Positions 27,530 through 64,000 of a stretch of DNA of 64,000 nucleotides are shown piece by piece; within the stretch, counting starts at the first letter, position 1, and each line of letters begins with the position of its first letter. The notes beneath the pieces are model-generated. The model worked only from the letters and a program-made list of their open reading frames with translations, searched no databases and was not told the DNA's origin. The translations under genes were made by a program, and so were the position numbers. Source of the DNA: a virus; IMG/VR virus record IMGVR_UViG_3300024999_000034, positions 1-64,000 of that record, one strand, 5' to 3'.

Positions 27530-28354
27530 TCAGAATTTATTCGTTTCGAACATTCTTATATTTTTCATGCGTTCTCTTGCCTTTTCTCTATCTACATCCT
27601 TTGCACAAACTTTACAATATTTATGAGTATGGTTAGACTGCTTAAATAGTTCTTCACAACCTTCGTTCTCACATTTAATAATTTTATTCTCCCCGTTATA
27701 CCAATCAAAATAATATCCAATATTATCAAAATCAGTTATAGAAAACGCAACATCACCCTCTTGTTTACAATTCTTAATATAATCCAAAAGAATAGTCCCT
27801 TTATGCACTATTGTAATCAATTCTAATTTTTCCAAAGTATTTATAACTTCATCATTTAAAAGCATTTTTACTGGTATATTTGACATCTTTTTTATGTTAT
27901 TATATTTTTTAACACCTCCTTTAAAATATGACATATTGTATTCTTCTCCATCATGTCTATATTCAAAAATCATTTTATTCAATCTTAATTGAACTAAAAA
28001 TGTAAACATTACCTTCTTATACTCCTGATTAATATCTAAAGAATTAATATAATCAAGTTCTACTTTATAAATATCAATACTAGATATTGAAATTAACTTT
28101 TGTTCTTTCTTCATTCCAGTATTTAATGCTCTGTTTATTGTTTTATAAAATTTCTCCTTTCTAAAATTAGGAATATATCTTTTGCAAAATTCATATATTT
28201 TAAATTCACGTTCTTTAGGTTTGAAATCCAACATATCTCTATAATATAAGACTAATAATCTTAATTCTGTAGCAAAATATTTTGTCAAAAACCCTTTTTC
28301 ATATATCTTTTCTGCATATGCCAATTCATTGTATTTATATTCCATTAACATCAA
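27530..28354 (-). CDS. Putative wHTH plus C-terminal Zn-finger DNA-binding protein coupled to the RNA polymerase
   Basis: Overlaps the RNAP stop, C-terminal CENEGC...YCKVC followed by a basic helix. Confidence 0.55.
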   Translation of the reverse strand: MMLMEYKYNELAYAEKIYEKGFLTKYFATELRLLVLYYRDMLDFKPKEREFKIYEFCKRYIPNFRKEKFYKTINRALNTGMKKEQKLISISSIDIYKVELDYINSLDINQEYKKVMFTFLVQLRLNKMIFEYRHDGEEYNMSYFKGGVKKYNNIKKMSNIPVKMLLNDEVINTLEKLELITIVHKGTILLDYIKNCKQEGDVAFSITDFDNIGYYFDWYNGENKIIKCENEGCEELFKQSNHTHKYCKVCAKDVDREKARERMKNIRMFETNKF

Positions 28355-47082: not shown

Positions 47083-47511
47083 ATGGCAAAAAGAACTAAA
47101 TCTACTAACACACCTAGAAAATTAGAAGACACATCCTGGTTAGCTCAAATAATCAAAGACAAAATGGAGGTAGAATCTCAAAAAATGGGTTTATGGCCTT
47201 CAAATCGTTACAAATCACTACATACTCTACACATTATCGTAAATAAAGCAGACGATGAAAACTACAACAATATCTACTATGACACATACAACGGTAAAAA
47301 ATCAATCACAATATGCGAAATACCATCATTAACGATAGAATATGGTTACGACTACGACACAGAAGGAATGCAAGCAAAACTTAGAGGACTACAAGAACGC
47401 TACAAGGATGACGATGGAATGTACATAGTATCAGTCTTGACCACAAATGACTTAAACAGTGCAATGATAAAAGACTTGGAAGAATTAATGTATCAAATAG
47501 GAACACACTAA
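47083..47511 (+). CDS. Early hypothetical protein
   Basis: AAGGAG RBS, followed by a terminator at 47511-47540. Confidence 0.7.
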   Translation: MAKRTKSTNTPRKLEDTSWLAQIIKDKMEVESQKMGLWPSNRYKSLHTLHIIVNKADDENYNNIYYDTYNGKKSITICEIPSLTIEYGYDYDTEGMQAKLRGLQERYKDDDGMYIVSVLTTNDLNSAMIKDLEELMYQIGTH

Positions 47512-47761
47512 AAGCAGGTTATTTCCTGCTTTTTCTTTTTTCCTTACAATCTATTAACAATTAAATTCTAACCTCTCATACGGCTCCTAGTGGCCTCTGA
47601 TAGTAATCTATTGTCCTTTATATTATCTGTGCTACTCCAAATCAACCAACAACTATAAATATAAATATCTTTACATCTACAACATAAATCTATATACTCT
47701 TAATTAATTCAATGTATTAATCAAATACCAAAAATACATAAATAAAAGGAGTGCTTACACT

Positions 47762-48145
47762 ATGGCAAGAAACCTAAAACCAGCAAATCTCAAAAAACTA
47801 TCTCAAATCAAAACCTCTAACGGCTTCAAAATTGACTTACCCAATTACATGTATAATCCATCTTATGACCATGAATACCCAAACCTCCTAAAACTAACCC
47901 ACGAAACCACAACTGAGCGTTTTTACACCACTGTAAAATACTTCAAACGCTATAATGGAACCGGATATTATTCAACAGAAACTTATTCCCACAAAATTGA
48001 TGATTCGAATTCCTGGAGCATTGCAAACAGTCTAAAAGAAACTGAATTAGAAGAGTCTAATAGATTTAGCATGAAACATCTAATAGAACTAGCGGAACAA
48101 ATTAAACTAGAAAACATTCCGGCAATTGCTGAAGCAGCACGTTAA
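47762..48145 (+). CDS. Early hypothetical protein
   Basis: AAGGAG RBS, terminator at 48171-48194. Confidence 0.7.
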   Translation: MARNLKPANLKKLSQIKTSNGFKIDLPNYMYNPSYDHEYPNLLKLTHETTTERFYTTVKYFKRYNGTGYYSTETYSHKIDDSNSWSIANSLKETELEESNRFSMKHLIELAEQIKLENIPAIAEAAR

Positions 48146-48574
48146 CATAAACCACAAAATAAAACCACTAAGAGGCTCTAACGAGTCTCTTTTCTATTCC
48201 TCTAACATTCCCTCACCCATCCACATAAAACCTCTCACAATCAATCCTAGCACATATCACAGCAATATAAATATCATAATAAAAAGTGTGAAACTCTTAA
48301 TATATATAATATAGGACTTTCACACTTTTGAAAATTCCCATATTCCCGATCACAACAAAACAAATCCTAAAATAAATATTGACATAAATTAATAACCATG
48401 CTATAATTAATTTTACCCGATTATACAGAAATAAATTTTAAAGAAAAGGAGTTGAGCGAACCATACTAATTATACAAATTGTACAAATACGTAGCACTGG
48501 TAGCACATAGGTAAGTTTATTCTGTTTATTATTGCATCAGTAAAAAATAAAATTATAAAAGAGGTATATTAAAA

Positions 48575-48892
48575 ATGAAATATAATGACTTTGAATTAAC
48601 TATATTAGATATGCTCTATAATCCTTATGGCCCTAATGGATTGGAAGAAGATCAAGAACCGCAAGTATCAAACCTTGAATACATCCTAGAATATTGTAAT
48701 GAATATTCCTTAGAATCTAATCCAGACCAAACATATCATGAATGGATACAATTATATGAAGGAAATGATTCTATAATTTTAGAAATGATTATGGAAGAAT
48801 ACATGCGTATTATTGAAAGAAGTACTGAAAAAATAGTTATAGAACATTCAAAACAAAGAATTAATATTAATCTAGAAAATGAAGGAGAATAA
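48575..48892 (+). CDS. Acidic hypothetical protein
   Basis: AGAGG RBS. Confidence 0.6.
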   Translation: MKYNDFELTILDMLYNPYGPNGLEEDQEPQVSNLEYILEYCNEYSLESNPDQTYHEWIQLYEGNDSIILEMIMEEYMRIIERSTEKIVIEHSKQRININLENEGE

Positions 48893-48896
48893 ATAA

Positions 48897-50138
48897 ATGA
48901 ATATTGATAAATTAAGAGAATATGTAAAAACCTCCAATACAATTGCAAATTATAAATTCCTATGTGCTATTCTAGGCATCAAAGTAACTAATGGGAATTC
49001 TAAAAAATCACAATTACTAGAAATGGAAAGATACTTTAAATATCACAAGGAGGGAAATAAATTTATTATTGAAGAAATATATGATAATCCATTAAACAAA
49101 ATAGAAAATAGAGGCGGTAACAATGTCACGGAATACACCAAAATTATAGAAAACTTAATACTAGATTTATTACTACAAGGTGGAAACACTAAACAAGGTT
49201 TCGGTCTAGTATTCCTTAGTAAAAATCAATTATTAAAAGAATTCCATATGATTAATGATAATTATGTTTACTGCAAGCGCAGAATATTAAAATTATCTAA
49301 ATTTATGAATATTGATAAGGAAACAGTCGAGGAATGGTATGATCTAAATGATGATATGTTAGAAAGAAATTTACAGCAAGCTCTTAAAAGTTTAGAGAAT
49401 CAATCATTGGTGTCATGGGATAGAGAAATTACAATTGCTGAAGCAATCCCTTTAGCTGAAATTACGCATGATGGAACCGAGGTAATAAAAAGAAAATACA
49501 TAGATCAATACGACGAAGAACAAACTGATTATAAATATTATGCAAATGATGAAATAAAATTGAATTATAGAGAAGGGACTAATAAAGAAAAAGCATTTAT
49601 TTTAGAAACTGAAAAAGAAATAATGAAAGAATTAGGATGCGATAGTAAACAAAAGATTATTAAATTTGGATTATGGGATATATTCAAGAATAAAATAGAT
49701 GATATTATATTGAAAAAACTTAATATTGCATTTTACTATAAGTCCTATAAAATCCTATTTAATGAAAAACATATAAAAGAGGCTATAAACGATATTTTCT
49801 ATCAATTTGAATTAACTGAGGATGAAAAGATAGCAAGTAAAATAATACTAAATAGTGATGTAATGGACAGAACTATCACAAATGCAGAAAATAGACATGA
49901 TAAGGCTATAGAAGAGAAATCTAAAATCATTGGCAAAATGAAAAATGATACAAAAGGGCAGAGAACTATAAGGAGAACAAAAGAAAATTATATTAATGAT
50001 AATAGAGAATTAGGAAATAATCTAATAATCAAAGGTGCTGTAAATATTAAAGAAATTGTAAAAAGAATTAAATTAGAAATTAAAGAAGAAAAGTCAATAG
50101 ATGAAATATTACAAGAAATATTAGATGAATTAGAATAA
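48897..50138 (+). CDS. Conserved phage protein, possibly DNA-binding or replication-associated
   Basis: NYKFLCAILGIKVTNGNSKKSQLLEMERYFKYHKEGNKFIIEEIY N-terminus, followed by a spaced inverted repeat. Confidence 0.5.
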   Translation: MNIDKLREYVKTSNTIANYKFLCAILGIKVTNGNSKKSQLLEMERYFKYHKEGNKFIIEEIYDNPLNKIENRGGNNVTEYTKIIENLILDLLLQGGNTKQGFGLVFLSKNQLLKEFHMINDNYVYCKRRILKLSKFMNIDKETVEEWYDLNDDMLERNLQQALKSLENQSLVSWDREITIAEAIPLAEITHDGTEVIKRKYIDQYDEEQTDYKYYANDEIKLNYREGTNKEKAFILETEKEIMKELGCDSKQKIIKFGLWDIFKNKIDDIILKKLNIAFYYKSYKILFNEKHIKEAINDIFYQFELTEDEKIASKIILNSDVMDRTITNAENRHDKAIEEKSKIIGKMKNDTKGQRTIRRTKENYINDNRELGNNLIIKGAVNIKEIVKRIKLEIKEEKSIDEILQEILDELE

Positions 50139-50535
50139 AATTATAAAAGTTGGACATTTTAATTCCCCGTAATATATAATAGTATAATGGGCATATGAAA
50201 CGTCCAACTTTTTATCTATTATTTCATAATTATCAAAACTAAATCAAAAACCCTAGCTTGCAGCAGCCTTTCAATTTTGAGATAAGCTCAAAATAGCATT
50301 TATCAACTCTAATTAAATTTATTCTAATAATCCTTAAATCCTCAATAAATACAGTGATTTAGGAACGTATGTCAGCATTTCGCTATTCGCTCAATGGCTG
50401 AATTTATATTTCTAATAATTTTTTTCTTTTACAATTCTTAATAAACACTAAAATAAAATACTTTACAATCTATTATCCTATCTATATAATACTAATCAAT
50501 ATTAAAATACATAAAAAGAAAGAAGGCATTCCCTC

Positions 50536-50868
50536 ATGAAAAAATTAATATCTATCCTAACCCTAACCATATCTCTCCTAACATCTTCTATCCTAACAAC
50601 TTCAGCTAATCCCTCAATCCAACCTAACTCCGATCACTCCTACACAATGATAGCACTCGCCACAAAATCCCTCTATAATCCTTCAGAATCTTGCTATCAT
50701 ACAATCCTACAAAATGAAAATGGCGACACCTTCACAGTCCTAACCTCAGACAATGTTACAAACAAATGGTTCGAGTGCTCAGTAGATTCCAATTCTACAC
50801 CACAAATTATCACTGATGATAAAATAATTGATTTAGGATTATTAGAAGAAACAGAAAATTGTCAATAA
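50536..50868 (+). CDS. Secreted protein with signal peptide
   Basis: MKKLISILTLTISLLTSSILTTSA-N signal peptide. Confidence 0.65.
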   Translation: MKKLISILTLTISLLTSSILTTSANPSIQPNSDHSYTMIALATKSLYNPSESCYHTILQNENGDTFTVLTSDNVTNKWFECSVDSNSTPQIITDDKIIDLGLLEETENCQ

Positions 50869-50989
50869 TATATCATTATAAATTGTAAAATAAATTTGCA
50901 AAAACATCTAACCTGTGCTATTCTATTGGCATAGGTTTTTATTGTAATCAGTCCAAATCAAAAGTAAAAAGAAAGAAGGTAAAATACAT

Positions 50990-51544
50990 ATGATTAAACT
51001 TACCGAACTCAAGCGCATGATAAAATCAAACTCATTACGCAAAGCATTTTACTCCGAAGGTCTTACCAATGTAATTTTTAATTACGATAGAATGGTATTA
51101 ATTGAGTTAAAACAATGCGACCAACTCAAACTATTTAATTATCTGAAATCAATCAATTATGTCGATGACAAGTATAGTTTCGGAGAAAATGAACTTTACA
51201 CGGATTCAGAACTTAAAAATAAACTTGAAAAACTTAAAGGGAATACCTCGGAGCATATACAATGTTTGGTCGATACAGGAATACAATTCCATCAATCTGG
51301 AGCCTGGAAAGACTCTGAAAAAACATTATATAAAATTTTCAAAACTAAAAATGGACTAATGAAAATTAAAGACGAATACATTTGTTTGCTTAATCAGGAT
51401 ATTAAAAAAGGAGTAGTTTTAAAAACAAATGAAGCTCAGTCAATGATATTTATCTATAATAATACAAACGATTGCATAGGAGTATGCATGGGAGAAAAGT
51501 TTGAAATGAGCGAACTAACAGAATATACAAATTGGGGATCTTAA
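50990..51544 (+). CDS. Early hypothetical protein
   Basis: AGAAGG RBS, terminator at 51545-51570. Confidence 0.65.
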   Translation: MIKLTELKRMIKSNSLRKAFYSEGLTNVIFNYDRMVLIELKQCDQLKLFNYLKSINYVDDKYSFGENELYTDSELKNKLEKLKGNTSEHIQCLVDTGIQFHQSGAWKDSEKTLYKIFKTKNGLMKIKDEYICLLNQDIKKGVVLKTNEAQSMIFIYNNTNDCIGVCMGEKFEMSELTEYTNWGS

Positions 51545-51652
51545 GGAGCTTTACAGCTTCTTTTTTTTCTTTCCCTGCTACAATTTCCCTCTATCTATAA
51601 TCTAACCTCTTAAATCCCTATCCACGGGCCTTAAAACGTAAAATAAATTAGT

Positions 51653-51681
51653 TTGACATTGTGCTATCTATCAATTATAAT
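51653..51681 (+). promoter_or_regulatory. Consensus SigA promoter
   Basis: TTGACA-17-TATAAT with an upstream A-tract. Confidence 0.85.
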
Positions 51682-51724
51682 CTTACTTAGTAAATCAAAT
51701 ATAAATATTAGGAGGAATACATAA

Positions 51725-51868
51725 ATGAAAAAAGTCTATGCGTTGTGTGGAGCAACAGGTATTGTTAAAATGTTTTCCAGTAAATCAAAAGCGGAAACAA
51801 TGGCTAAAACATATAATCTTCAATGTAATTCTGATTCTTATTATGTTGAAGGTTATGAAGTAGAATAG
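51725..51868 (+). CDS. 47-aa protein missed by the ORF track
   Basis: AGGAGG RBS, MKKVYALCGATGIVKMFSSKSKAETMAK...GYEVE*. Confidence 0.7.
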   Translation: MKKVYALCGATGIVKMFSSKSKAETMAKTYNLQCNSDSYYVEGYEVE

Positions 51869-51880
51869 AATTAAGAAGGA

Positions 51881-52171
51881 GTGCTAAAAATGAGTAAAAA
51901 CCAATGGTATGTACATACTGAGGGTTCAATTGGTTATATTAGCCACAATCTAATCCAATATACGCCAACTAAACAAGATGCTGAAAAACTACTAAAACAA
52001 GTAAAGAAAATTGATAAACTATGTTATGTTGACTTTGTTTGGAAATCAGACTTGCACCTTCCATTTTCTAAACTACATGGTAAAATGCCAATAAAAGTTG
52101 AAAGTATAATGGATGTACTAATTCCACTAATTGAAAATGATTTAAGATCGTGGAACAAAGCATTAATTTAG
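51881..52171 (+). CDS. Early hypothetical protein
   Basis: Followed by a gagtagta-GAAA-tactactc terminator. Confidence 0.65.
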   Translation: MLKMSKNQWYVHTEGSIGYISHNLIQYTPTKQDAEKLLKQVKKIDKLCYVDFVWKSDLHLPFSKLHGKMPIKVESIMDVLIPLIENDLRSWNKALI

Positions 52172-52196
52172 AGTAGTAGAAATACTACTCTTTTTC
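52171..52196 (+). terminator. Intrinsic terminator
   Basis: 8-bp stem, GAAA loop, T-tract. Confidence 0.85.
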
Positions 52197-52333
52197 TTTG
52201 CCTATGCTCCTTATCTTATCTCTATATAATCCCTCCAGGCCTTCCACAATGCCTATTAAGCTCTTATAAATCCTATCTGATACAAATACACTCTAAACAG
52301 ATAATAAGGCCACACAATGTTTAAATAATTATA

Positions 52334-52378
52334 TTGACATTTGCTATAGTGATCTGTATTATATTAAGTAATTACATA
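52334..52378 (+). promoter_or_regulatory. SigA promoter with AGTAATTACATA at +1
   Basis: TTGACA-17-TATTAT. Confidence 0.8.
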
Positions 52379-52400
52379 TTGAATTAAAGGAGGCTTCAGC

Positions 52401-52922
52401 ATGTCGGAATCTAAATTAGTCGGTTATGAATGGAAAACTGAAAAAGGAGAAAAATTCTCTGCATACGATGGCGGTTTAATCCCTGCTAAAGTGTCAGATT
52501 GGAGTCAAGCAGAAAAATCCCAATTATCTGGTAAAACTATAGTACATATTTATTGGATCTTAAAAGATGGAGAAATACTTCCATTCGGTAAAAATTCAGC
52601 TATGAAGGAACTAGGAATCAAAGCAGGGACAATAAAAAAGATGGCCGAAGAATACATGTCACAAGCAAGAAAACAAGCAGAAGACTACAAATGGCTATTA
52701 AAATCTATCGGATCAATGCAAAAACATTCTAGCATTCAAAATGCAAATAATGCATATATAAATACAAACTATTCACCCATGCATACTCCGAGACCTAGAA
52801 TTAGTTATCTGGTAAATACAGCTTGTTTTTGTCTTAATAATGAATATCTAACGAGACAAAACAACGAAGAAAATAATAAGGTACTAACCGAACTAGGATT
52901 TATAAAAGTATTGGAGAACTAG
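52401..52922 (+). CDS. Early hypothetical protein
   Basis: AAGGAGG RBS. Confidence 0.7.
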   Translation: MSESKLVGYEWKTEKGEKFSAYDGGLIPAKVSDWSQAEKSQLSGKTIVHIYWILKDGEILPFGKNSAMKELGIKAGTIKKMAEEYMSQARKQAEDYKWLLKSIGSMQKHSSIQNANNAYINTNYSPMHTPRPRISYLVNTACFCLNNEYLTRQNNEENNKVLTELGFIKVLEN

Positions 52923-52976
52923 AAATAGTTCTCTTCTTATAATTTTTTATTGGTAGTTTAAGGAGGAATAAATAAA

Positions 52977-53174
52977 TTGAAAAACTGGTTAAATGTAAAA
53001 ATTGAAGATTATGTGTTAACCTACAGCAAATCAAATAGGCCACAATTCCATTCTTGCAATTGGTGCGGCAATCCTGCAATTAAAATCATCACGAGAACTA
53101 GTGTAGCGACAGGTAATACTTATAGTGATTTCGCTTGTGATCGACATACAGAAGATTGGAAACAAGGAATATAA
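52977..53174 (+). CDS. Small zinc-finger protein
   Basis: CNWC...CDRH, TTG start with AAGGAGG. Confidence 0.65.
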   Translation: MKNWLNVKIEDYVLTYSKSNRPQFHSCNWCGNPAIKIITRTSVATGNTYSDFACDRHTEDWKQGI

Positions 53175-53385
53175 AAATAAATCACTAGAAGGAGCTTAAA
53201 AGAGCTTCTTTTCTTTTTGCTATACATTATATCATTTCATAATCCAAACACCTTAAATAACCATTTCTGGCCTTATCATTGCTATCTGACTAATCCTGCT
53301 ATACTCACATTCTTAATTCTGTAAATACCAGAAAACTCTTGTTTTATCCTATTGTATGAAGTGTAAAATAATTATTTGTAATCAG

Positions 53386-53430
53386 TTGTATTTTGTTCAA
53401 TAAGTGTATATAATAGATAGTAATTACATA
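53386..53430 (+). promoter_or_regulatory. SigA promoter with AGTAATTACATA at +1
   Basis: TTGTAT-17-TATAAT. Confidence 0.75.
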
Positions 53431-53458
53431 CTGAATTTTAAGGAGGAAGTGTTATAAA

Positions 53459-53883
53459 ATGAAATGTGATGAAAAAGGAAAATCAATTATTTTGTCTTGC
53501 ACTAAGGAAGAATTAATGGTAATCATGGGAGTTTTGAAGAGTGCAGCAAATAAAGCAGATCGAGAATTAAACAGAGAAAAAGCTAACCTCTTAGATACTT
53601 TTCAGGGTAATTTGAACGCTATACAATGTGGTATGTATACAGGTATCAAATTTGATATTAAAACTAAGGAGGAATAGAGAATATGGAACTCAAAAAACTA
53701 CAAGCAGAACTTGAAGATGCTGAAGAAAAAGTAATCGATGCCCAGGAGGAATATAATAGGATCAAAGAGGAACTAGAAGAACTCAAAGACCAACTTGACG
53801 GAGCTAAAGGTGATCTTAGAGAAGCAAAAGAATTAGTTAAAAATATCAAAGCAGAGATAAGAGAGGCAAAGGAAATTAAATAA
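53459..53883 (+). CDS. Two small ORFs (53459-53677, and the coiled-coil 53683-53883)
   Basis: AAGGAGG RBSs, heptad pattern in the second ORF. Confidence 0.65.
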
Positions 53884-54072
53884 ATGGATACTAGAAGCTG
53901 TAAAAGGCTTCTATTTTCTTTTCCGGTACTAACTAACCATAAATCAATTAAAACCTCTTAAAACCTTATTTCTGCTGTTCTGTCGCTATTCTGTATACCT
54001 TTCATGTTCCAAAAAGATAAACTGCCCATTTTAATGGGTGAATGAAATAATAATTAAGATATAATTATTATG

Positions 54073-54117
54073 TTGACAATGGATATTAATTTTAGTATTA
54101 TAATTAGTAATTACATA
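54073..54117 (+). promoter_or_regulatory. SigA promoter with AGTAATTACATA at +1
   Basis: TTGACA-17-TATTAT. Confidence 0.8.
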
Positions 54118-54137
54118 ATTATTTAGGAGGTTCTAGG

Positions 54138-54523
54138 ATGCTAACAAAAAAGCAGAAAACAAAACTTGAAAAACTTGCCAAAGATGTTACCGCCTCAAAA
54201 ATTGTAAAAGGTATTGAAGTTAATAAAATGTCATCGGATCAAGTTGAAACAGCAATTAGCAATTTAACGGAGGAAGAAGAAAATTATTATACTAGTCTTG
54301 TAATTGGAGAAAATAACTAAATGTAGGAGATGGTAAAAAAATGAAAAAGGGAATGTATGATTTTAATGATTTATTGCAATGTAAATTGCATCTTCGAAAA
54401 CATGGTGAAATTATTTGTAGTGGTTATATTGTGGCAAACATGTTTAATTTTTGTATGGCTGAAGGGATTAAAATTACAGTTGAGAAAATATCTGAAACGG
54501 AATACAAATTCTTAAAGAGCTAA
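54138..54523 (+). CDS. Two 60-aa ORFs (54138-54320, 54341-54523)
   Basis: AGGAG RBSs, terminator after the second. Confidence 0.65.
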
Positions 54524-54763
54524 CAAATAGCTCTTTTTTCTTTTCTCCTACCCTTTAAAAATCCATTTTTATACTATATTTTGATTTTAAGAATCGACTT
54601 ATAGCAAGGGTTCTAGGGTTTTTACTTTTTGCAATTTTAATGAATTGTAAAATAATTATTCAAATGCCATTGACGTATTATATTAAATCATAGTACAATG
54701 AGACGAACGCTAAAATTAACTTATAATTATTATTGATATGTAATAATACAAATATAAAATAGT

Positions 54764-54792
54764 TTGACAACTTAGAGTAAAATCATTATACT
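54764..54792 (+). promoter_or_regulatory. SigA promoter
   Basis: TTGACA-17-TATACT. Confidence 0.75.
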
Positions 54793-54832
54793 ATACTTAG
54801 GTACATAAATAAATTATAAGGAGTTGGCACGA

Positions 54833-55481
54833 ATGGAAAACTTAAAATCTTTAGTAGGTCAACGGGTAACGCTCACCAGTATTTATGGTAGCGTATACAA
54901 TTCAACTCTAACAGAGTATGAGGATGAATTAGTCACAATCAAAAACGAAGGATTTATGGAAATTGTTTTTGCAATTGAAGAAGTTCAAAGCGTAGAAAGA
55001 AGGGTTTAAAATGATTGCTAAAATGACAGACAAAGTTAGATATAATGAGGGGATCACAACTATTCCTGAACTAGATGCTTTAGGGTTGATCGAATTTAAG
55101 CAAGAGGATAATATTTATTCTAAACGTACTGCTTCTGGTGTATGTACTAAATATTTTGCTAGTCTTAAAGATTCCGGAGGATGTTGGGAGATTTCAAAAA
55201 CTTCTTATCTGTCCAGAACAGGCCAAAAAGAAAAAATTGGAAAGGTTGAAAAACTGATTAATTCCGAAGGTTTAGAAATTACAAAAGAAGCAATTAGTAC
55301 ATATAATCGGAAAAGTTGTTCCCTCGGAGGAAATGACAATTGGAATATTGCAAATGGTTTAGGGACTAATAAGGAGAATAGATATCTAAAAAGTGTAGCG
55401 CGGTATTATGGAGTAGATAAATTAACAAAAGAAGATATTAAAAGATATATAGAAAGGGAAAAGATAGGAATACTAGTGTAA
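54833..55481 (+). CDS. Two ORFs: small Sm/SH3-like beta protein (54833-55009) and a hypothetical protein (55011-55481)
   Basis: LVGQRVTLTSIYGSVYNSTLTEYEDELVTI resembles an Sm-like fold (weak). Confidence 0.5.
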
Positions 55482-55668
55482 AATAAATTACTAAGAAGCT
55501 GAATAGGCTTCTTTTTCTTTGCCTTGTTATAGTTTTACCCTAAACATATTACAACGCCTTAAAAGTGCCATTATGGGCCTTACAATCAAATATAATTACT
55601 ATTTGACGTTTGTATATTTGCTATGATATTATGTAAATAATAAAATAAATTTAAGGAGAGCTGAACTC

Positions 55669-56160
55669 ATGAAAAAATATGATTTTGTAAAAATTCTAAA
55701 CATTGGCGTTGGAAAAATTGAAAACATTTGGGACAATAAAGACGTTCAAATTAATATCTGTGATACTATGTATTATAGGGATCTTACAGAAGATAGGCAG
55801 GATATAGGTAACGTTGAACTAGCAACGGAAAAACAATACATAGAATTTATCAAATTCATGATTAAAGAACTTAACGCAAAGTCTAAAAATAAAAGGAGCG
55901 AAGCAGCAGACTATAATCGAGAAACAAACGGAGAAGCCACCAGGAGGAAAGGTAAAGTCTCAGTAATAAATGGTAATTATGCTTTTGGATTATGCGAAAA
56001 TTCAATATCTCAGCATCATAGAGGATTACTGTCCGATGCTAAAAAAGCAAAGGAGTTAAAAGACAAACTAAAAAAGGAAATAGCATGGTATAAACACAGA
56101 GATAAATTAATAAAAGAGGCTGAAAAGGAAAGAAAGAATAGAGAAAATAATGCAGGGTAA
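55669..56160 (+). CDS. Early hypothetical protein
   Basis: AAGGAG RBS, terminator at 56167-56197. Confidence 0.65.
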   Translation: MKKYDFVKILNIGVGKIENIWDNKDVQINICDTMYYRDLTEDRQDIGNVELATEKQYIEFIKFMIKELNAKSKNKRSEAADYNRETNGEATRRKGKVSVINGNYAFGLCENSISQHHRGLLSDAKKAKELKDKLKKEIAWYKHRDKLIKEAEKERKNRENNAG

Positions 56161-56499
56161 ACCATTTAGACTAGAAATAAAATTCTAGTCTTTTTCTATG
56201 TTCATTCAGCCGGATCAACTCATTTTCCCTTTTCAATCCTTCACATTCCCAAAACACTCCAACAGAAACGTCCCTTCTTGCCATCAGATTGCATTGCCCT
56301 TTATAATCTTGCCTAGCATCGATTTAAACGTCTCAGAATTAAAATAAGCATAATATACAATCAAATCTGGCTTATTAAGCGCAGATTAACTCCGATACAG
56401 TCATTAACTATATAATTACCAATCATTACCATACTATGAATCATATAGCATCATTAATATAAGTAATAGCATATAAATCAAAATATAATGTTTTAGGGG

Positions 56500-56528
56500 T
56501 TGACGGATTGCTGTTTAAGTATTAAAAT
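56500..56528 (+). promoter_or_regulatory. SigA promoter
   Basis: TTGACG-17-TAAAAT. Confidence 0.7.
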
Positions 56529-56534
56529 AAAGAC

Positions 56535-56880
56535 AGTTAAACAATACATAAATAAAAACTTACTAGGAAGTAGTTAGTGAGTTAACCCCATAAAGTTTAC
56601 AGGTTTTCCAGTTTGACCTTTAAAAACTGAGGGATAGGACAATGGAGCAGATTGCCTACCTAAAAGCTCTTTGAAAACTGAATAAAGCGAACTAGCACCA
56701 TAAACCTTCAATACTACTTTTTGGATTGACGCTTGCGCTTATAAAAGCAAGTTGAAGGAGTGGGAAAGATGAAATACAAGCGCACGGAACGCCTTCAGCT
56801 AGTTAAATTGTCCCTTACAAAAACTTGCTCATCTTGTCTTAATTTCTGCTCTCTTAAAGTAAAAAATAAAATTAAGAAAG
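56535..56880 (+). ncRNA. Structured ~340-nt leader containing a Firmicutes rrn-type boxA
   Basis: gctctttgaaaactgaata at 56666-56684. Stems aacttacta/tagtgagtt, cagttt/aaactg, aactagc/gctagtt, ccttcaa/ttgaagg, cttgc/gcaag. Confidence 0.6.
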
Positions 56881-56892
56881 TGAGAAATAAAA

Positions 56893-58101
56893 ATGTCTGA
56901 AAATCAAAAAGAATCTATTTTAAAACTTGCTAAAGGTTCTTGGCAGCGTTCAATCCTCAGAGACTTATTATCTTATTCAGCCATAACAAATCCTATCAAA
57001 TCGCTTAAAGGTAACGCTAAATCTTATTCAAAACGTTATCAAGTATCATTTTTTGCGTTGCTTTTTAGAATCGAAAAAGCCGGATACACCATAACAGTCA
57101 AACCTGGCCCACTTGGTGGACAGTGGGGATCTACATACAGTTTATCAGTATAAAGTTAAAAATAATTATTCTAAACACTTTCAAAATAGAGAGTGGAAAT
57201 TAAGGCAAGAAAAAAGTATAATTGTAAGGGAATCAAAACTATCTTTTATCTCTTATTGCTTTTCTTGTTTTTATTTTTACCCTCTTAATTAAGAGGGGGA
57301 AAATAAAATGACTAAAACAAAAATTAATCAATTATTTATTGAATCTTGTGATAAACTAATTGGAGAACTTGCTTACACAGATATGGTAAATCACAAAAAA
57401 ACATTATCTAAAGCAAAACAAAGAAATTATCAAGGAGGTTATTCACTTTCCGCAAATACTCAATACCTGCTAGAAACTAAAAAAGCGTATATAGCAGGAA
57501 CAATGAGTGAAGAGGAGTCAAAAGCTATATTCCTTCGACAAAAACTATGCGGAAACGTGCTATAACAAATTGTCTATAACAATCGTAGAGGGTAAACACA
57601 AGGACAAGGAAAGCAAAATTAAAGGGATTAAAAAAGACAATTCATGGTAGTTGAAGTGTCTTTTTCTAAATTATATCATAATAATTATTAAAATATGGTA
57701 TAATTTAGAAAGGACATTTAAGTCCCTAATTTAAGGAGGTTTTTAAAATGACTAACAAAAAATGGTTTTGTACTCCTGATGCTGAAACGAGAAAAGGAAT
57801 TGCTGGTTATAGATTTTACCTGTCAATGAAGAAAAATTATGAGCCGGATGTCGAACTTTCTCCTTCGCCTTGGGTTCATGCTGAAGCTTTGGAGTCTAAA
57901 AATGATTTTTTCTTTACTTCGCGTGATATTGCTTATCCAGAAATTACGAAACGATTAGGAGAAGTAGAAAGATTAATATTACATCCTTGTTATGTATGTA
58001 ATATTACTTTTGACGAAAAACTACTTTACCCTGTTGTAAATGATAATGACGAAAAAACAGGGGAACATATTTGCCATGAATGTCTAAATAATGACGACTA
58101 A
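56893..58101 (+). CDS. Three short hypothetical ORFs (56893-57153, 57308-57565, 57748-58101)
   Basis: RBSs present, the third has CxxC..CxxC. Confidence 0.6.
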
Positions 58102-58203
58102 ATTAATTAACCCTTAAAATTGGTTGTAAGTGTACGCAAGTTAAACATGCTATAACAAATGCTTGCGTATAGTTGGGAATCAATTATTAAGGAGTGGTAT
58201 TAT

Positions 58204-59505
58204 ATGAAAGAAATGCTAGTAAAAACTTTCGGAATTGTGGGTTTAGTTGGTCAACTAAAATCTGGTCAAATCAACAGGGATGCTGAAATGCAAAGATCGT
58301 TTGTGTGGGGTAACAAGGAGCAAACAGACTTAATTGATTCTGTTTTTCAAGCTCTAACAACTTATATCCCTCCCTTGATTGGTGCTGAAACTGAGGTTGA
58401 AGTTGAGGTAAAAGGGAAAATCGAAAAAGTCATTGACCTTCTTGACGGAAAGCAGCGCAGTACAACCTTGGAAAAATTCTTGAATGATGAAATAAAGTTG
58501 GGCCATAACATTCGGCCTGTTGTCATTGAGAATGAAGACGATACTATTGAAACTTACATAGTTGCAGGGAAAAAATGGAGCGAATTACCGGACAGAGCAA
58601 AGCAAGTTTTCAAGAATTGTAAGATCCAAATGGTTTATTTTAAGGACATGACACAACAGGAAAGAGAATTGCAGTTCATCAAACTCCAGGGAGGGAAGAA
58701 ACTAAGTAATGCAGAAGTAAACAAGGTTCGCATTGGTGATGAAGTCAGAACATTTATCTATAAGCAATTAGCAACAGATTTATGGACTAAATTCATTAAT
58801 GTTTCTGCAAACCGCGAGGTTAAATTTGAGACAATGCAACAAGTACTAATGGTTATGACTAATTCCTTTGACTTATCCGGCAAATCATTACAAGCATTTT
58901 CAGAGGATTCTATCATGGTCGATGCTGAAACCATGGTAAAAGTTGAGAGAGTCACGGAATACCTAAATGAAGTTGTAAAATTCATTAAAAAATTCTCTTT
59001 ACCTACTGAACTTCAAAAACTTGAAGAATCAGAAGTAATCATCAAACTCGAACCTAAAGAGCTTAAAAAGTATCAGAAGCCTATAGAATATCTTAAGAAG
59101 GTTCATGTCTCAGTTATCTATAACACGGCACTCAAGGCCATTCTGAACGATATTAGCGCAAAGGATTTTGCTAAATTTGTTGCTAAATTCTTCTTTGATG
59201 TTCCTGCAAGGTATAAAAGATATACAGAATCAGATACTTCTAGTGCATCAAGTGGGAAAATTAGAATTGAGGAAATGGATAAGGCACTGGTCAATGAGTT
59301 CAAAATTGTGGCAAAGGTTACTGAAGTAAAAGTTGAAGAGGTTCAAGATGTTGAGCCAGTAATTGAGCAATGGGAACAACCTTTACAAGTTGAAAACCTC
59401 GAATCTATCATAACAGATGAACCTGAAGAGTTCGGCAATAATGAAGAAGATAAGCAAGACGCTCAATTAATTATTGATATTACAAATAATTCCAATGTTG
59501 CTTAA
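58204..59505 (+). CDS. DUF262 (ParB/Srx-fold, GmrS-like) domain protein
   Basis: MQRSFVWG...LIDSV...YIPPL...LLDGKQRSTTL...FIKLQGGKKLS, with AGGAG RBS before the ATG at 58204. Confidence 0.8.
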   Translation: MKEMLVKTFGIVGLVGQLKSGQINRDAEMQRSFVWGNKEQTDLIDSVFQALTTYIPPLIGAETEVEVEVKGKIEKVIDLLDGKQRSTTLEKFLNDEIKLGHNIRPVVIENEDDTIETYIVAGKKWSELPDRAKQVFKNCKIQMVYFKDMTQQERELQFIKLQGGKKLSNAEVNKVRIGDEVRTFIYKQLATDLWTKFINVSANREVKFETMQQVLMVMTNSFDLSGKSLQAFSEDSIMVDAETMVKVERVTEYLNEVVKFIKKFSLPTELQKLEESEVIIKLEPKELKKYQKPIEYLKKVHVSVIYNTALKAILNDISAKDFAKFVAKFFFDVPARYKRYTESDTSSASSGKIRIEEMDKALVNEFKIVAKVTEVKVEEVQDVEPVIEQWEQPLQVENLESIITDEPEEFGNNEEDKQDAQLIIDITNNSNVA

Positions 59506-59593
59506 TTAATCCTTGGTAGTTTTGAGCTTATGCGTTAAGATAATAACAAGGCTTAACGCATTGTCGGAAAAATTTAAAAGGAGCTGTATTATT

Positions 59594-60359
59594 ATGTCTA
59601 ATAATTGTTTTGTTGCAATTGTAAGAACATACAATGATAATAGTAAAGAGTATGTTCTTACGACAAAAAATGATTATGAGAAAGAATCTAAAATTAAAGA
59701 CTTTAAAGAAGAATTGTCTTATTTTAAAACCTATATTGAGGCATGTGACTATATTTATTCTTTAAGTTAATTTTCCGTTTAAATCATGTCTTTATGGTAT
59801 TAAGTTTTTAGAATAAATTTGAAAGTTGGAAATCAAATGAAAGAATTTAATTACTTAGGACTTACTTTTAAACCGTTGAGAACTCTAAAGGGTAAATCGT
59901 CTGATTTCTTTGCAATATCAAAAAAACTAAATGATATTAAAATTACTCCTAAAAATTGGAATCATACGGAATTTTATAAATCAGCAGAACAAAACGGAGC
60001 AGGAGAAATTGACTTATTTGAGGTAAATGGGTTAGTGGTTATTCCTTGTCAAAATTGTTTGTTTCAATATAAATAACTAGTATATATGTCCTCAGAGCGT
60101 TTCAGCCATAACAAAACAGGTTGAAACGTTGTCGAGGGTATATAAATTAAAGGAGTCGAAACAAATGAAAAAGTGCAATATTTGCAATGACCATTTTGAC
60201 GATCAATTTATTTCTCAATTCGAGACATTAACCTACACCAAAAAAGTTCTTCAAGTTTGTTTCTATTGTAAAGAAGATGAGTCAGAATATGACGATGGCG
60301 AAGAAATGGAGTGTATCAGGCAAGGTGATTCAATTTATTATCCTTCCCACTTGCTATAA
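59594..60359 (+). CDS. Three short hypothetical ORFs (59594-59770, 59819-60076, 60129-60359)
   Basis: Short ORFs separated by conserved-loop hairpins. Confidence 0.55.
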
Positions 60360-60462
60360 CAAAAGCTTTAATTATTCTCTAGGTCGTGATATAATGTAAA
60401 TATAAATATTACGGCTTGGAGAGTATTTAAGACTCTTCAAAATTTAAAGAAGCGTGTTACAT

Positions 60463-62355
60463 ATGACCAAATTATTATTGAATGACCAACTAAAAGGAGT
60501 AGAACTTTATTTTGAAGGAAAGCCATCACAAACCATCATCGACAGTTTAAAAAGCAATGGTTTTCGTTATCATGGTGGAAAAGTTTGTTGGTATGCAAAA
60601 CAGTCTGAAAAAACTATGGCAGAAGCTCAAAAACACACTTTAGAGCAAGGAACAGAACAAACACAAGTTAAACCATTAACACTCGTTACACCAGTGGTTA
60701 AAGCACAAAAGGAAGTAAAAAATAATATTATTCTTCCTTTGTGGGATCTTACACAATGGTCAGATATTCAAGTTGACAACAAACAAGGCACAAAATCAAT
60801 TGCATCAGAAATGAGAAAGCATGTCAGGACTCGTTTCCCTATGTGTAAATTTTCAATCACTAGTGACTATTCCAGTGTTTCTTTCTATATTGTTGCAAGT
60901 CCTTACGATCAAGAAAGTGAATATTTAAAAGCGATAAGGTTATACTGTGATAACTTAATCAAAGCTTATCGGTATTGTACTTGTGACGATCCATACGGAG
61001 ACTATGGAAGTTCATATAATTTTTATGGTTCTCATACCTCAATTGATTACCATTACAAGCAAACTGAGCAAACAGCAGAAATAAAATCTGATATGTTAGA
61101 CTTTGATGCTAAAAAAGCATTGGAAGAAACTAAAGTAGAAGAACAAAAGGAAAAGGATTATCAATTGTATTTAGTTCAAAAAGAACTAGACAAAAAATCC
61201 TATGAAGAATCAGCTAAGAAAGAAGCCGAACAAGTTCAAACTATCAATGCTAGTATCTCTATAACAGACTTAGCAAGAGAACAGCAATACTTTGTAATTG
61301 GTTCACAGTTTGCACACTTGAACAAGAATAACACCTTAGACCAATATAAAGAGGACGTAGAAAAAGGCGAATTCTATTTACAAAATGTCAAGATTACAAA
61401 AGAAATCCATTTCCAAACTGAAGAAGCTCTATCCTACTTCTCTAACATGTTGCTTAATGATTTTGATTTTCTTGCCGAAACTGGTGGAAGTTATACAGAC
61501 GATGTTCGTATTAATTCCATGACGGATTATAACAACATGACTGAGGAAGAGCGCAAAACTGTTGTATTTAATCTTTATGGAGTCGGAATTTACTATAACA
61601 ATGAACTCAAATTCGTTGTGGACGCTCAAGGCCATTCATACGCCAGATATGTTGGGTTAATTGAAAATGTTACCATTCAAAAATCTGACAATGTAGATCA
61701 ATTAGTTAACCATGAACAAATAAAAGAATTAAAGGGAAAAGTTGAAACCCTTGAGGATTTATCAGTTGAAGCAATAACTTGTAATCCTTCTTTAGTTGGA
61801 ACATGGGACAAAGAGAATTGGAACGAATACAAAGACAGGATGAAACAGATTTTCAATAAAAACTATTTTAAATTAACCAAGTCTATCATTCAGCAAATAC
61901 CTGAAGAGTCGGAAACCTTAAAAGGTTGTATGTATAGACTGCTCAAGGAAGTTGATGGAATTCAGGAACAGTTTAGGAATGCAGACTTGAAGCAAGGCCA
62001 GAAAGTAACATTATTCTATATTACTGATTTTGGAAGCGTAGCAAATCAAATGGTAACGCTCGATAGTGTTGAGTATACTAAATACGCGCAGTATGATAAT
62101 GCAGTAAAATTGACTTGGATACCAAAAGGAAAAAGGAAACAGTATTACAATTTCTTTTACAGCACTTTGTTAGTTTATGAGGGATGGTTAGAACTTCCTC
62201 AAAGTGTTCTGCATGAAGTGAGCGAATCTAATGATTTTGTCATAACAAAAACTAAATATTTGAGCTGTGATAAAAAGCAGTATGACGAGATTTTAGACCA
62301 TTATGAAGTACAGGGACTTAAACCAGTGATAAATACCTATAAACCTACATTCTAA
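60463..62355 (+). CDS. Large polyvalent protein with LPD29-like domain
   Basis: IASEMRKHVRTRFPMCKFSITSDYSSVSF resembles LPD29. N-terminal VELYFEGKPSQTIIDSLKSNGFRYH. Confidence 0.6.
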   Translation: MTKLLLNDQLKGVELYFEGKPSQTIIDSLKSNGFRYHGGKVCWYAKQSEKTMAEAQKHTLEQGTEQTQVKPLTLVTPVVKAQKEVKNNIILPLWDLTQWSDIQVDNKQGTKSIASEMRKHVRTRFPMCKFSITSDYSSVSFYIVASPYDQESEYLKAIRLYCDNLIKAYRYCTCDDPYGDYGSSYNFYGSHTSIDYHYKQTEQTAEIKSDMLDFDAKKALEETKVEEQKEKDYQLYLVQKELDKKSYEESAKKEAEQVQTINASISITDLAREQQYFVIGSQFAHLNKNNTLDQYKEDVEKGEFYLQNVKITKEIHFQTEEALSYFSNMLLNDFDFLAETGGSYTDDVRINSMTDYNNMTEEERKTVVFNLYGVGIYYNNELKFVVDAQGHSYARYVGLIENVTIQKSDNVDQLVNHEQIKELKGKVETLEDLSVEAITCNPSLVGTWDKENWNEYKDRMKQIFNKNYFKLTKSIIQQIPEESETLKGCMYRLLKEVDGIQEQFRNADLKQGQKVTLFYITDFGSVANQMVTLDSVEYTKYAQYDNAVKLTWIPKGKRKQYYNFFYSTLLVYEGWLELPQSVLHEVSESNDFVITKTKYLSCDKKQYDEILDHYEVQGLKPVINTYKPTF

Positions 62356-62433
62356 CGCTTATAACAGCCATTCTATGCAGTTTGTGAAGGTTCTGCCATA
62401 ACAAAAACCTTCAATACATACTAGGAGGGCAAA

Positions 62434-63882
62434 ATGAAAAAATGGGAAAAATTATGTTGGGATAGTTTACCGAGAAAAGGCAAATATATTGATTGGAAAA
62501 ATACTGTTGGAATGACATTGAAGGGTGTGTATAACAAACTAAACTTTGAAATATTGATAATTAATTATAATATTGTTTATCGAGTATTAACTGTTAAATA
62601 TTTAGATAAAGAAACCTATGATATTAGTGCAAATGGTTTTATTAGATGTCAATTAGGGGAATATTTGTTTGACAGAAGCAAACATAAAAGAAAAGTAGGA
62701 GATATATTTATAACAAATACGGGTGAACAATTGGAAATAACAGAGTGCTTTGAAAAGTATAATTATAAAACACAACTTTATCGTTCAAAATGGTATAAAT
62801 ACAGATGTTTAAATTGTACATATGAAGGAGAGATTATTGAGGGTAATCTGACTATTGGGCAAGGATGTTCTTGTTGTAGCAATTCTAAAGTAATTGTAGA
62901 GGGCATTAATGATATTCCAACTACTGCTCCTTGGATGGTAAAATATTTTCAAGGTGGTTACGATGAAGCAAAATTATATGTTAAAACTACCCATAAAAAG
63001 ATTAAACCTATATGCCCCGACTGCAATAGGATAAAAAATAAGGAAATGGGAATATATAACATCTATAGGAATCGTTCAATAGGATGTTCTTGTGGCGATG
63101 GTATTAGTTATCCCGAAAAGATTATGTATTCAGTTTTAGACCAATTAAATATATATTTTTTTACTCAATTAAATAAAACCATATTAGATTGGTGTGAGGG
63201 GTTTAAATATGATTTTTATATTCCTTCTCCAAGCAGTATAGTTGAGACACATGGTAAACAGCATTATGAGGAAATTTCAAGGAAATCAAAAACAACATTA
63301 ATTCAAATTCAGAAAAATGATAAAAATAAAAAGGATTTGGCATTATACAATGATGTGGATAATTATATAATTATTAATTGTAGATATTCCGAACTAAATT
63401 TTATTAAAAATAATATATTGAATAGTGAATTATCTAGTATGTTTGATCTAACTATTATAAATTGGAATAAATGTGAAGAATTCGCTACAAATAATTTAGC
63501 AAAAGAAATATGTAAATTTAAAAACAATAATGAGGTCTTATCTGCAAATAAGATTAGTAAAATATTTAAAATTGGTACAACTACAGTAACATCCTATCTT
63601 AATAAAGGTACTAAATTCGGATGGTGCAATTACGATGGCAAAGAAGAAATGAAAAGAAGTGCTTTTAAAGTTGGTAAATTAAATTCTAAAAGAGTTGAGA
63701 TTTTCAAAGATGGCAAAAGTATAGGGATATTTAAAAGTAACAACGATCTGGAAAGACAAAGCGAAGAATTATTTGGAGTTAAATTATTAAATAGTGCAAT
63801 ATCGGCAGTTTGCAGAGGGAAAAGACAATCTCATAAAGGTTATTTTTTTAAATATGTAGAGGAGGTTGTAACAAATGTTTAA
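62434..63882 (+). CDS. Free-standing endonuclease (zinc ribbons, PD-(D/E)XK-like, NUMOD1), paralog of 37516..38910
   Basis: LPRKG...IDWK, CLNC..CSCC, INDIPTTAPW, YDFYIP..IVETHGKQHY, SHKGYFFKY. Confidence 0.7.
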   Translation: MKKWEKLCWDSLPRKGKYIDWKNTVGMTLKGVYNKLNFEILIINYNIVYRVLTVKYLDKETYDISANGFIRCQLGEYLFDRSKHKRKVGDIFITNTGEQLEITECFEKYNYKTQLYRSKWYKYRCLNCTYEGEIIEGNLTIGQGCSCCSNSKVIVEGINDIPTTAPWMVKYFQGGYDEAKLYVKTTHKKIKPICPDCNRIKNKEMGIYNIYRNRSIGCSCGDGISYPEKIMYSVLDQLNIYFFTQLNKTILDWCEGFKYDFYIPSPSSIVETHGKQHYEEISRKSKTTLIQIQKNDKNKKDLALYNDVDNYIIINCRYSELNFIKNNILNSELSSMFDLTIINWNKCEEFATNNLAKEICKFKNNNEVLSANKISKIFKIGTTTVTSYLNKGTKFGWCNYDGKEEMKRSAFKVGKLNSKRVEIFKDGKSIGIFKSNNDLERQSEELFGVKLLNSAISAVCRGKRQSHKGYFFKYVEEVVTNV

Positions 63883-64000
63883 AGATATTAAAGACTTCTA
63901 TCCCACTCCACAGCCACTAATTAGAAAAATGCTAGAGAAAATAGACTTCAAAATGGTTTCAAGTATTCTAGAAAATTCAGCAGGTAAAGGAGATTTGGCA
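63875..64000 (+). CDS. N-terminus of a SAM-dependent DNA methyltransferase (truncated by the window edge)
   Basis: MFKDIKDFYPTPQPLIRKMLEKIDFKMVSSILENSAGKGDLA: FYPTP and motif I, with AGGAGG RBS. Confidence 0.75.
   Translation, partial: MFKDIKDFYPTPQPLIRKMLEKIDFKMVSSILENSAGKGDLA

Follow-up and report, generated by a model that had tools for sequence, protein, structure and literature searches.

A letter-for-letter copy of the boxA of rRNA operons, the signal at which Nus factors are loaded, stands at the head of a long array of co-directional protein-coding genes in an uncultured phage from groundwater, and we put at roughly 0.6 the probability that this 19-mer is a working boxA that would bring about processive antitermination of the rrn or T7 type via Nus factors, without an N protein. 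Binding of the Nus factors, antitermination as its outcome and the length of the resulting transcript are what we infer from the identity of the sequence, the selection that maintains it and the layout of the locus around it.

The phage is represented by an IMG/VR virus record (180,838 bp, linear, estimated to be 85% complete), of which the first 64 kb (64,000 nt) constitute the stretch analysed here, referred to below as the window. Its DNA has a GC content of ~29%, and the sequencing runs that contain it are groundwater metagenomes, none of them an RNA run. Leftward genes fill 1-46 kb; from 46.6 kb onwards, up to where the record ends (~180 kb), essentially every gene points rightward; the largest gene-free gap of this rightward array, at 56161-56892, holds the boxA leader. 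Between 44 and 47 kb, where the GC skew is odd, a search for tandem repeats and tRNAs returned nothing notable. The YonO-like polymerase encoded on the leftward arm shares 48.5% identity with its closest match, from Bacillus phage BUCT082 (Spbetavirus), and 29% with that of Clostridium phage c-st, so that the label of a Clostridia-type phage, proposed in the earlier note on this DNA, finds no support. Besides that of c-st, more distant relatives of this polymerase occur in Enterocloster and Thomasclavelia phages. Judged by this one protein, the nearest cultured relative that we found is a Bacillus Spbetavirus, and the sequence points to a large SPbeta-like phage with a probable Gram-positive host. 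The polymerase gene, boxA and the first two genes behind it are located as follows.

28335-31160, minus strand: gene for the YonO-like single-subunit RNA polymerase (PF05183)
56666-56684, plus strand: the 19-nt boxA, identical to that of rRNA operons
56893-57153, plus strand: ORF1, 86 aa, the first gene of the unit, with 24 homologue clusters, all metagenomic
57308-57565, plus strand: ORF2, an open reading frame of 85 aa

The 19-mer is present as a single copy in the 180,838-bp genome, in the sense orientation; base composition leads to an estimate of ~5e-6 chance occurrences per genome. Its 12-nt core is likewise found only once in perfect form, and cores with one mismatch are scattered over both strands as by chance. 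Across IMG/VR, the exact 19-mer was recovered from 32 other contigs and the reversed-letter control from none. These 32 viral contigs range in GC content from 29% to 60%, their flanks are unrelated and none shows rRNA similarity; in such unrelated viral contigs, the genes that follow boxA are varied. A scan of one genome per prokaryotic species found the exact 19-mer in at least 120 bacterial contigs from many phyla. Among the bacterial matches listed, rRNA was present in the retrieved stretch for 59 of 120, and Rfam placed the 19-mer either ~130-160 nt upstream of 16S (L034, L052) or inside the 16S-23S spacer (L083, L054); in many of the matches listed, it lies at a contig end, which we infer to reflect adjacency to collapsed rRNA operons. 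What had initially been described as a close match to the boxA of rRNA leaders is thus, given its sites both upstream of 16S and in 16S-23S spacers, exact identity with a pan-bacterial rRNA boxA and not mere resemblance, so that the comparison was right and is stronger than first stated. Several related leaders carry a boxA variant whose first bases, those of the core, equal the B. subtilis rrn consensus, and this consensus boxA was shown in 2026 to bind BsNusB (PMC13753749). A further non-rRNA use of boxA is seen in an Oscillospiraceae MAG (L053:482-757), where the exact 19-mer and a pemK RNA motif (RF02913) share a strand, the former ~165 nt upstream of the latter; tRNA genes are close by and rRNA is absent.

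Relatives of the locus were gathered in two ways, by homologues of a GmrSD_N-domain protein (58159-59505) and by homologues of ORF1 (56893-57153), and every one of them has a gene-free stretch of 550-1030 nt ahead of ORF1. The earlier note had made its proposal depend on conservation of the motif in homologous leaders; boxA is retained in 14 of the 16 distinct leaders, either 163-308 nt ahead of the ORF1 start or in the syntenic position. With boxA as the anchor of these 14, information content comes close to its maximum on exactly these 19 positions and is low to either side. A mosaic of interchangeable modules makes up the flanks (the promoter with the first 25 transcribed bases; the hairpin H1; the module H2; one of several downstream segments; a block preceding ORF1), in which boxA is the sole sharply conserved island. 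Within boxA, variation is confined to position 2 and four positions of the 3′ part, apart from a change at position 10 in L182 alone. The variants follow the known boxA pattern, in which the second position is free and the U-rich core fixed; tolerance of change at the second position has been reported previously (PMC5725501).

Two oddities of the relatives concern assembly. The contigs L170, L171, L172, L178, L179 and L181 end within the leader, 60-280 nt upstream of ORF1, consistent with the shared mosaic modules having confused assembly, and in L008 (7124-8438) the homologue of the GmrSD_N-domain gene is split into two overlapping ORFs, probably by a frameshift or an assembly error.

The pattern of conservation bears directly on the proposal that the 19-mer has no function at the RNA level, being either a scrap of a captured host rRNA leader or a protein-binding site on the DNA. 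Capture of an rRNA leader is rejected, because among the 120 bacterial matches listed the phage leader and the bacterial loci have at most 26 nt in common, that is, boxA and a few flanking bases. A purely DNA-level role fits poorly with a boxA that forms an island of conservation in mosaic leaders and varies as boxA elements are known to vary, or with 32 viral matches against 0 for the reversed control. The point in favour is that two relatives, L165 and L177, manage without a canonical boxA, and we consider an element devoid of RNA-level function highly improbable. Both of these relatives retain the long non-coding leader and ORF1, from which it follows that boxA is dispensable or replaceable, a point against the antitermination reading. 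Their leaders (L165:2170-2884 and L177:700-1500) form a distinct type of ~700 nt, 81% alike over 345 nt, and that of L165 corresponds to no family in Rfam; this type may carry an alternative signal.

Transcription of the boxA leader would start from one, or possibly two, promoters, preceded by the terminator of the upstream gene.

56168-56191, plus strand: intrinsic terminator of the upstream gene (55669-56160), a 9-bp stem followed by a T-run (dG -10.4, z -3.9), conserved in relatives
56205-56346, plus strand: conserved non-coding block with a promoter-like site, 86-88% identical to L155, L160, L163 and L164
56278-56307, plus strand: upstream promoter-like site, TTGCCA, 18 nt, TATAAT, 11/12 match
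56500-56528, plus strand: sigma-A-type promoter of the boxA leader, TTGACG, 17 nt, TAAAAT, 10/12 match
56529-56553, plus strand: conserved initial transcribed stretch directly after the promoter

Promoter-like matches are frequent in this AT-rich DNA (50 found, 27 expected). The consensus promoter that had been assigned to 56500-56528 is indeed present, and both of its hexamers and their spacing are kept in 6 of the 7 aligned relatives. BoxA lies ~130 nt downstream of it, and all the genes downstream are co-directional. Further upstream, the sequence around the conserved block diverges in the four relatives that share it, and the 40 nt that follow the promoter-like site within it are strongly conserved. 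On sequence grounds, this site and the promoter at 56500-56528 are possibly arranged in tandem; the block may represent an upstream promoter together with operator sites, or else the start of a small RNA. The leader itself, described earlier as ~340 nt of non-coding sequence, measures 364 nt (56529-56892) and is non-coding, as proposed. The sole ORF in it, at 56760/56770-56900, has a good ribosome-binding site and overlaps the start of ORF1; since relatives preserve neither its start codon nor its reading frame, we do not accept it as a gene.

A boxA of exact host type, identical in sequence to the cellular target and preceded by one or two strong promoter-like sites, is also what a decoy would require, and abundant early boxA RNA might titrate NusB/S10 away from the host rRNA operons and thereby depress ribosome synthesis. 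We regard this as very improbable: boxA is present as a single copy per transcript and per genome, the phage itself depends on host ribosomes, and a decoy would have no need of the consistent placement at the head of co-directional arrays.

That placement is best appreciated from the distribution of terminators. In the strict scan, 11 plus-strand terminators were found between 47.5 and 56.2 kb, approximately one per gene, the last being that at 56168-56191; the next one lies at 90.2 kb, which leaves none for ~33 kb downstream of boxA. A second terminator scan agrees with the strict one for 54-60 kb. The region 47500-56200 comprises about eleven small genes, each equipped with a promoter-like site of its own and with a canonical terminator that has a short GC stem, and it reads as a zone of independent transcription units, in contrast to the terminator-free array that begins with the boxA leader. 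The elements that mark the beginning of this array are listed below.

57562-64000, plus strand, continuing to ~74.5 kb: array of intergenic hairpins with AUAACA loops, starting right after ORF2
57631-57665, plus strand: weak terminator-like hairpin followed by a U-run (-11.3 kcal/mol, z -2.2)
57696-57697 (TG) and 57699-57704 (TATAAT), plus strand: extended -10 promoter directly after that hairpin

Hairpins with AUAACA loops occur in 20 of the 27 intergenic regions between boxA and 75 kb, with 33 copies of the motif, as against none of 14 upstream and 4 of 142 beyond 75 kb. Sense ATAACA is ~10x enriched between the boxA leader and ~75 kb, where it mostly resides in loops of 11-20 nt, with 1-3 copies per loop, and the stems are unrelated to one another. 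The same boundary is evident in all 8 related loci, in which the density of sense ATAACA rises from 0-0.8 per kb before boxA to 2-3.7 per kb after it. Taken together, the boundary in terminators and the boundary in AUAACA hairpins indicate that a distinct transcription unit of ~18 kb is headed by boxA, and the border between a terminator-rich and a terminator-free region is where a signal for processive antitermination would make sense.

Because boxA forms the upstream boundary of the hairpin array in the window and in the 8 related loci, the two might even belong to one system, an 18-kb early unit dressed as an rRNA-like operon. A phage or host RNA-binding factor would then recognize the loop motif repeated in nearly every intergenic region, and would either keep the Nus-modified polymerase resistant to termination or time the processing or translation of each gene. 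We offer this joint scheme tentatively and hold it to be possible but unlikely; if true, it would be a multi-site antitermination or processing scheme undescribed for any phage.

A point that counts against antitermination as proposed here is the near absence from the unit of canonical terminators that would have to be overcome. The earlier note had stated that the operon contains intrinsic terminators, giving the hairpin at 57631-57665 as an example; this hairpin is present, but the plural does not stand, for a tolerant scan identified it as the sole credible intergenic terminator candidate between 56.9 and 75 kb, that is, in 18 kb. Moreover, the extended -10 promoter immediately behind it, and further promoter-like sites downstream, mean that the genes further along may be expressed independently of the boxA promoter. 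The segment 57627-57752, covering the hairpin and the -10 promoter, is 92% identical in L162. A second boxA-like core is found in L154 (4664-4686), and also in L156, L161 and L160 (at 4695), past the counterpart of the 57631-57665 hairpin, where it overlaps with a TATAAT, so that the unit may carry two copies of boxA in these relatives.

ORF1 is always linked to a long leader. Neither ORF1 nor ORF2 has a match in Pfam or PHROG, and an arginine-rich N-terminus, looked for in both sequences, is absent from each. The structural model of ORF1 (pLDDT 81.5) yielded only weak PDB matches, including winged-helix regulators (E 0.1-1), and the fold search gave no pointer to an RNA-binding antiterminator.

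The constant association of leader and ORF1, which are inherited together in all relatives, and the conserved hairpin that encloses the ORF1 ribosome-binding region (56842-56888) would also suit a boxA that recruits Nus factors to regulate ORF1 itself, lowering its translation or imposing Rho-dependent polarity in the manner of suhB. BoxA is able to promote Rho termination or to repress translation, as at E. coli suhB, where boxA-dependent repression is established (PMC5725501; PMC12360218), and this capacity for negative action also counts against antitermination. Under such regulation, the unit would respond to the level of free Nus factors in the host, and hence to growth rate. The distances do not favour this explanation: the phage boxA stands 163-308 nt from the ORF1 start, and the published candidates of the suhB type were chosen within 50 nt of a start codon. 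In addition, read-through better explains why boxA stands where a long co-directional array free of terminators begins, and the genes that follow boxA in unrelated viral contigs are varied. We therefore judge suhB-like regulation of ORF1 unlikely.

Beyond boxA, the leader contains several local folds and a conserved block.

56557-56583, plus strand: hairpin H1 (dG -9.3, z -2.8) with an invariant 9-nt loop, optional, in 4 of 7 aligned leaders
56601-56629, plus strand: module H2, including a hairpin of 56609-56614 paired with 56624-56629, with two compensatory pairs
56690-56804, plus strand: folded domain of ~115 nt on the 3′ side of boxA, with three compensatory pairs between the window and L164/L182/L184
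56811-56860, plus strand: conserved block ahead of ORF1, common to L160, L162, L164 and L165
56842-56888, plus strand: hairpin enclosing the ORF1 ribosome-binding region (dG -8.8, z -2.9), kept in 4 sequences

The fold energy of the leader as a whole is ordinary (z -0.36), for which reason it is not treated as one large RNA. Rfam gave no match at gathering score in the window and only chance-level matches in 56100-57400, and no match to the leader was obtained when the GenBank phage collection was searched for distant DNA similarity. The stem of H1 shows compensatory changes in L155, L162 and L163. Nine nucleotides of H2 (56601-56609) form the complement of the 3′ half of boxA, and the predicted pairing could occlude boxA; because boxA is invariant, no covariation is possible for this pairing. 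The H2 module is missing from several boxA-bearing leaders, and H1 and H2 are each present in 4 of the 7 aligned ones.

In the downstream domain, an outer helix (56690-56696 with 56798-56804) encloses a helix of ccttcaa with ttgaagg, a small hairpin and a 3-bp hairpin. The compensatory changes fall in the outer helix and one inner pair and stem from a single lineage split, and hence they lend modest support to the domain, which is found in only 4 of the 14 boxA leaders. Of the boxA plus stems that the earlier note proposed to look for in related phages, boxA is conserved (14 of 16) and the downstream stems are limited to these 4 leaders. The switch-like alternative that had been proposed, in which ttgaagg pairs with either ccttcaa or ccttcag, is not conserved either. 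The pairing partners lie at 56705-56711, 56752-56758 and 56792-56798, one base off the positions implied earlier, and for the window sequence alone two alternative folds are close in energy; in L164, L182 and L184, however, ccttcag has become cattcag, uncompensated, and the ccttcaa/ttgaagg helix and the outer helix are retained. With the second partner mutated in three other leaders, we rejected a riboswitch-like alternative pairing.

A folded domain with compensatory changes on the 3′ side of boxA, together with large hairpins in 20 of the 27 intergenic regions of the unit, is nevertheless what might be expected if the boxA complex acted chiefly by chaperoning the RNA or by providing a platform for its processing, a role that has been proposed for rRNA. 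The rrn complex is reportedly an aid to RNA folding, and the early transcript of T7, with its RNase III sites, provides a parallel for processing. On this account, the leader domain and the intergenic hairpins would fold and then be cut or bound, giving stable mRNAs. The presence of the domain beside boxA in only 4 of 14 leaders detracts from it, and the account overlaps with antitermination instead of excluding it; as the main function of the element, we deem it quite unlikely.

Processive antitermination via host Nus factors, our preferred reading, would proceed as follows. Host RNA polymerase would initiate at 56500-56528, and perhaps also at 56278-56307, and boxA would emerge as RNA ~130 nt into the transcript, where the host NusB-S10 heterodimer would bind it. 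Together with NusG and NusA, NusB-S10 would turn the polymerase into the form, resistant to pausing and termination, that is used on rRNA operons. The modified polymerase could then cross the hairpin at 57631-57665, the approximately twenty large intergenic hairpins and any Rho-dependent sites, and the early unit of ~18 kb (56.9 to ~75 kb) would be expressed as long transcripts with no need for an N-type protein of the phage. By analogy with SPbeta, and with the YonO-like gene on the opposite arm, the rightward array of the present phage would be left to the host polymerase. It counts against this reading that even rrn antitermination still awaits demonstration in Firmicutes (PMC13753749).

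This locus speaks to the question of whether antitermination of the rrn type occurs, and is of consequence, in Gram-positive bacteria. In this phage family, purifying selection has clearly preserved an exact copy of the host boxA where a long early unit begins, which provides independent evolutionary evidence that in such hosts the element does useful work on protein-coding transcripts. The locus also represents a compact test object, with promoter, boxA and one weak terminator within 1.2 kb, and, amid ORFans that otherwise defy annotation, boxA shows where a transcription unit begins. Furthermore, the occurrence of the 19-mer in non-rRNA contexts in 32 very different viral contigs suggests that N-independent use of the host boxA by phages may be common and under-annotated. 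We found no published description of boxA in a phage of a Gram-positive host, within a literature coverage that is incomplete.

Compared with SPbeta and BUCT082, the phage shares the YonO-like single-subunit polymerase and a two-arm genome with a very long co-directional array of small genes. Neither of these two phages has a sense boxA within 3 mismatches, their only site being one with 3 mismatches that is antisense to their genes; we thus rejected boxA as a general SPbeta feature, and the boxA leader appears, from the sequences compared, to be a trait of this uncultured phage clade.

The likeness to a lambda nut site, proposed in the earlier note, is one of general order: as at nutL and nutR, a promoter is followed by boxA, the first gene or genes, a weak terminator and the rest of the operon, with a presumed dependence on NusB/S10. 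It does not extend further, because boxA has no consistent boxB-type partner hairpin in the family (H1 and H2 lie upstream of boxA and occur in only 4 of 7 leaders), and ORF1 is not an N-like arginine-rich protein, nor was any such protein found. At 27 unrelated viral boxA sites, a flanking hairpin or a boxC-like motif was also looked for, and none was consistent (hairpin mean z -0.4). The boxA of lambda is a weaker form than the rrn consensus, and the phage boxA described here is the full rrn consensus.

With rRNA operons, the phage locus shares the same 19-nt sequence downstream of strong sigma-A/sigma-70-type promoters, possibly in tandem; as in rrn, hairpins precede boxA in some of the phage leaders and a long, structured, terminator-poor unit follows. 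It differs in that boxA heads protein-coding genes and the 16S/23S processing helix is absent; boxA is all that it has in common with rRNA leaders, and factor binding is presumed here.

The nearest precedent for the boxA leader is T7. In its early region, the host promoters A1-A3 are followed by a boxA and then by a polycistronic early transcript that contains RNase III hairpins between its genes. When this T7 boxA is mutated, a genetic phenotype results (PMC3709561). In both phages, a host-type boxA stands without an N protein behind early promoters for the host polymerase, although its function in the present phage is deduced from sequence; both encode an RNA polymerase of their own for other or later genes, and in both intergenic hairpins punctuate the unit. 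T7, however, is a small podovirus of a Gram-negative host, and the phage described here is a 180-kb SPbeta-like phage with a probable Gram-positive host, whose hairpins, unlike RNase III sites, carry the AUAACA loop motif.
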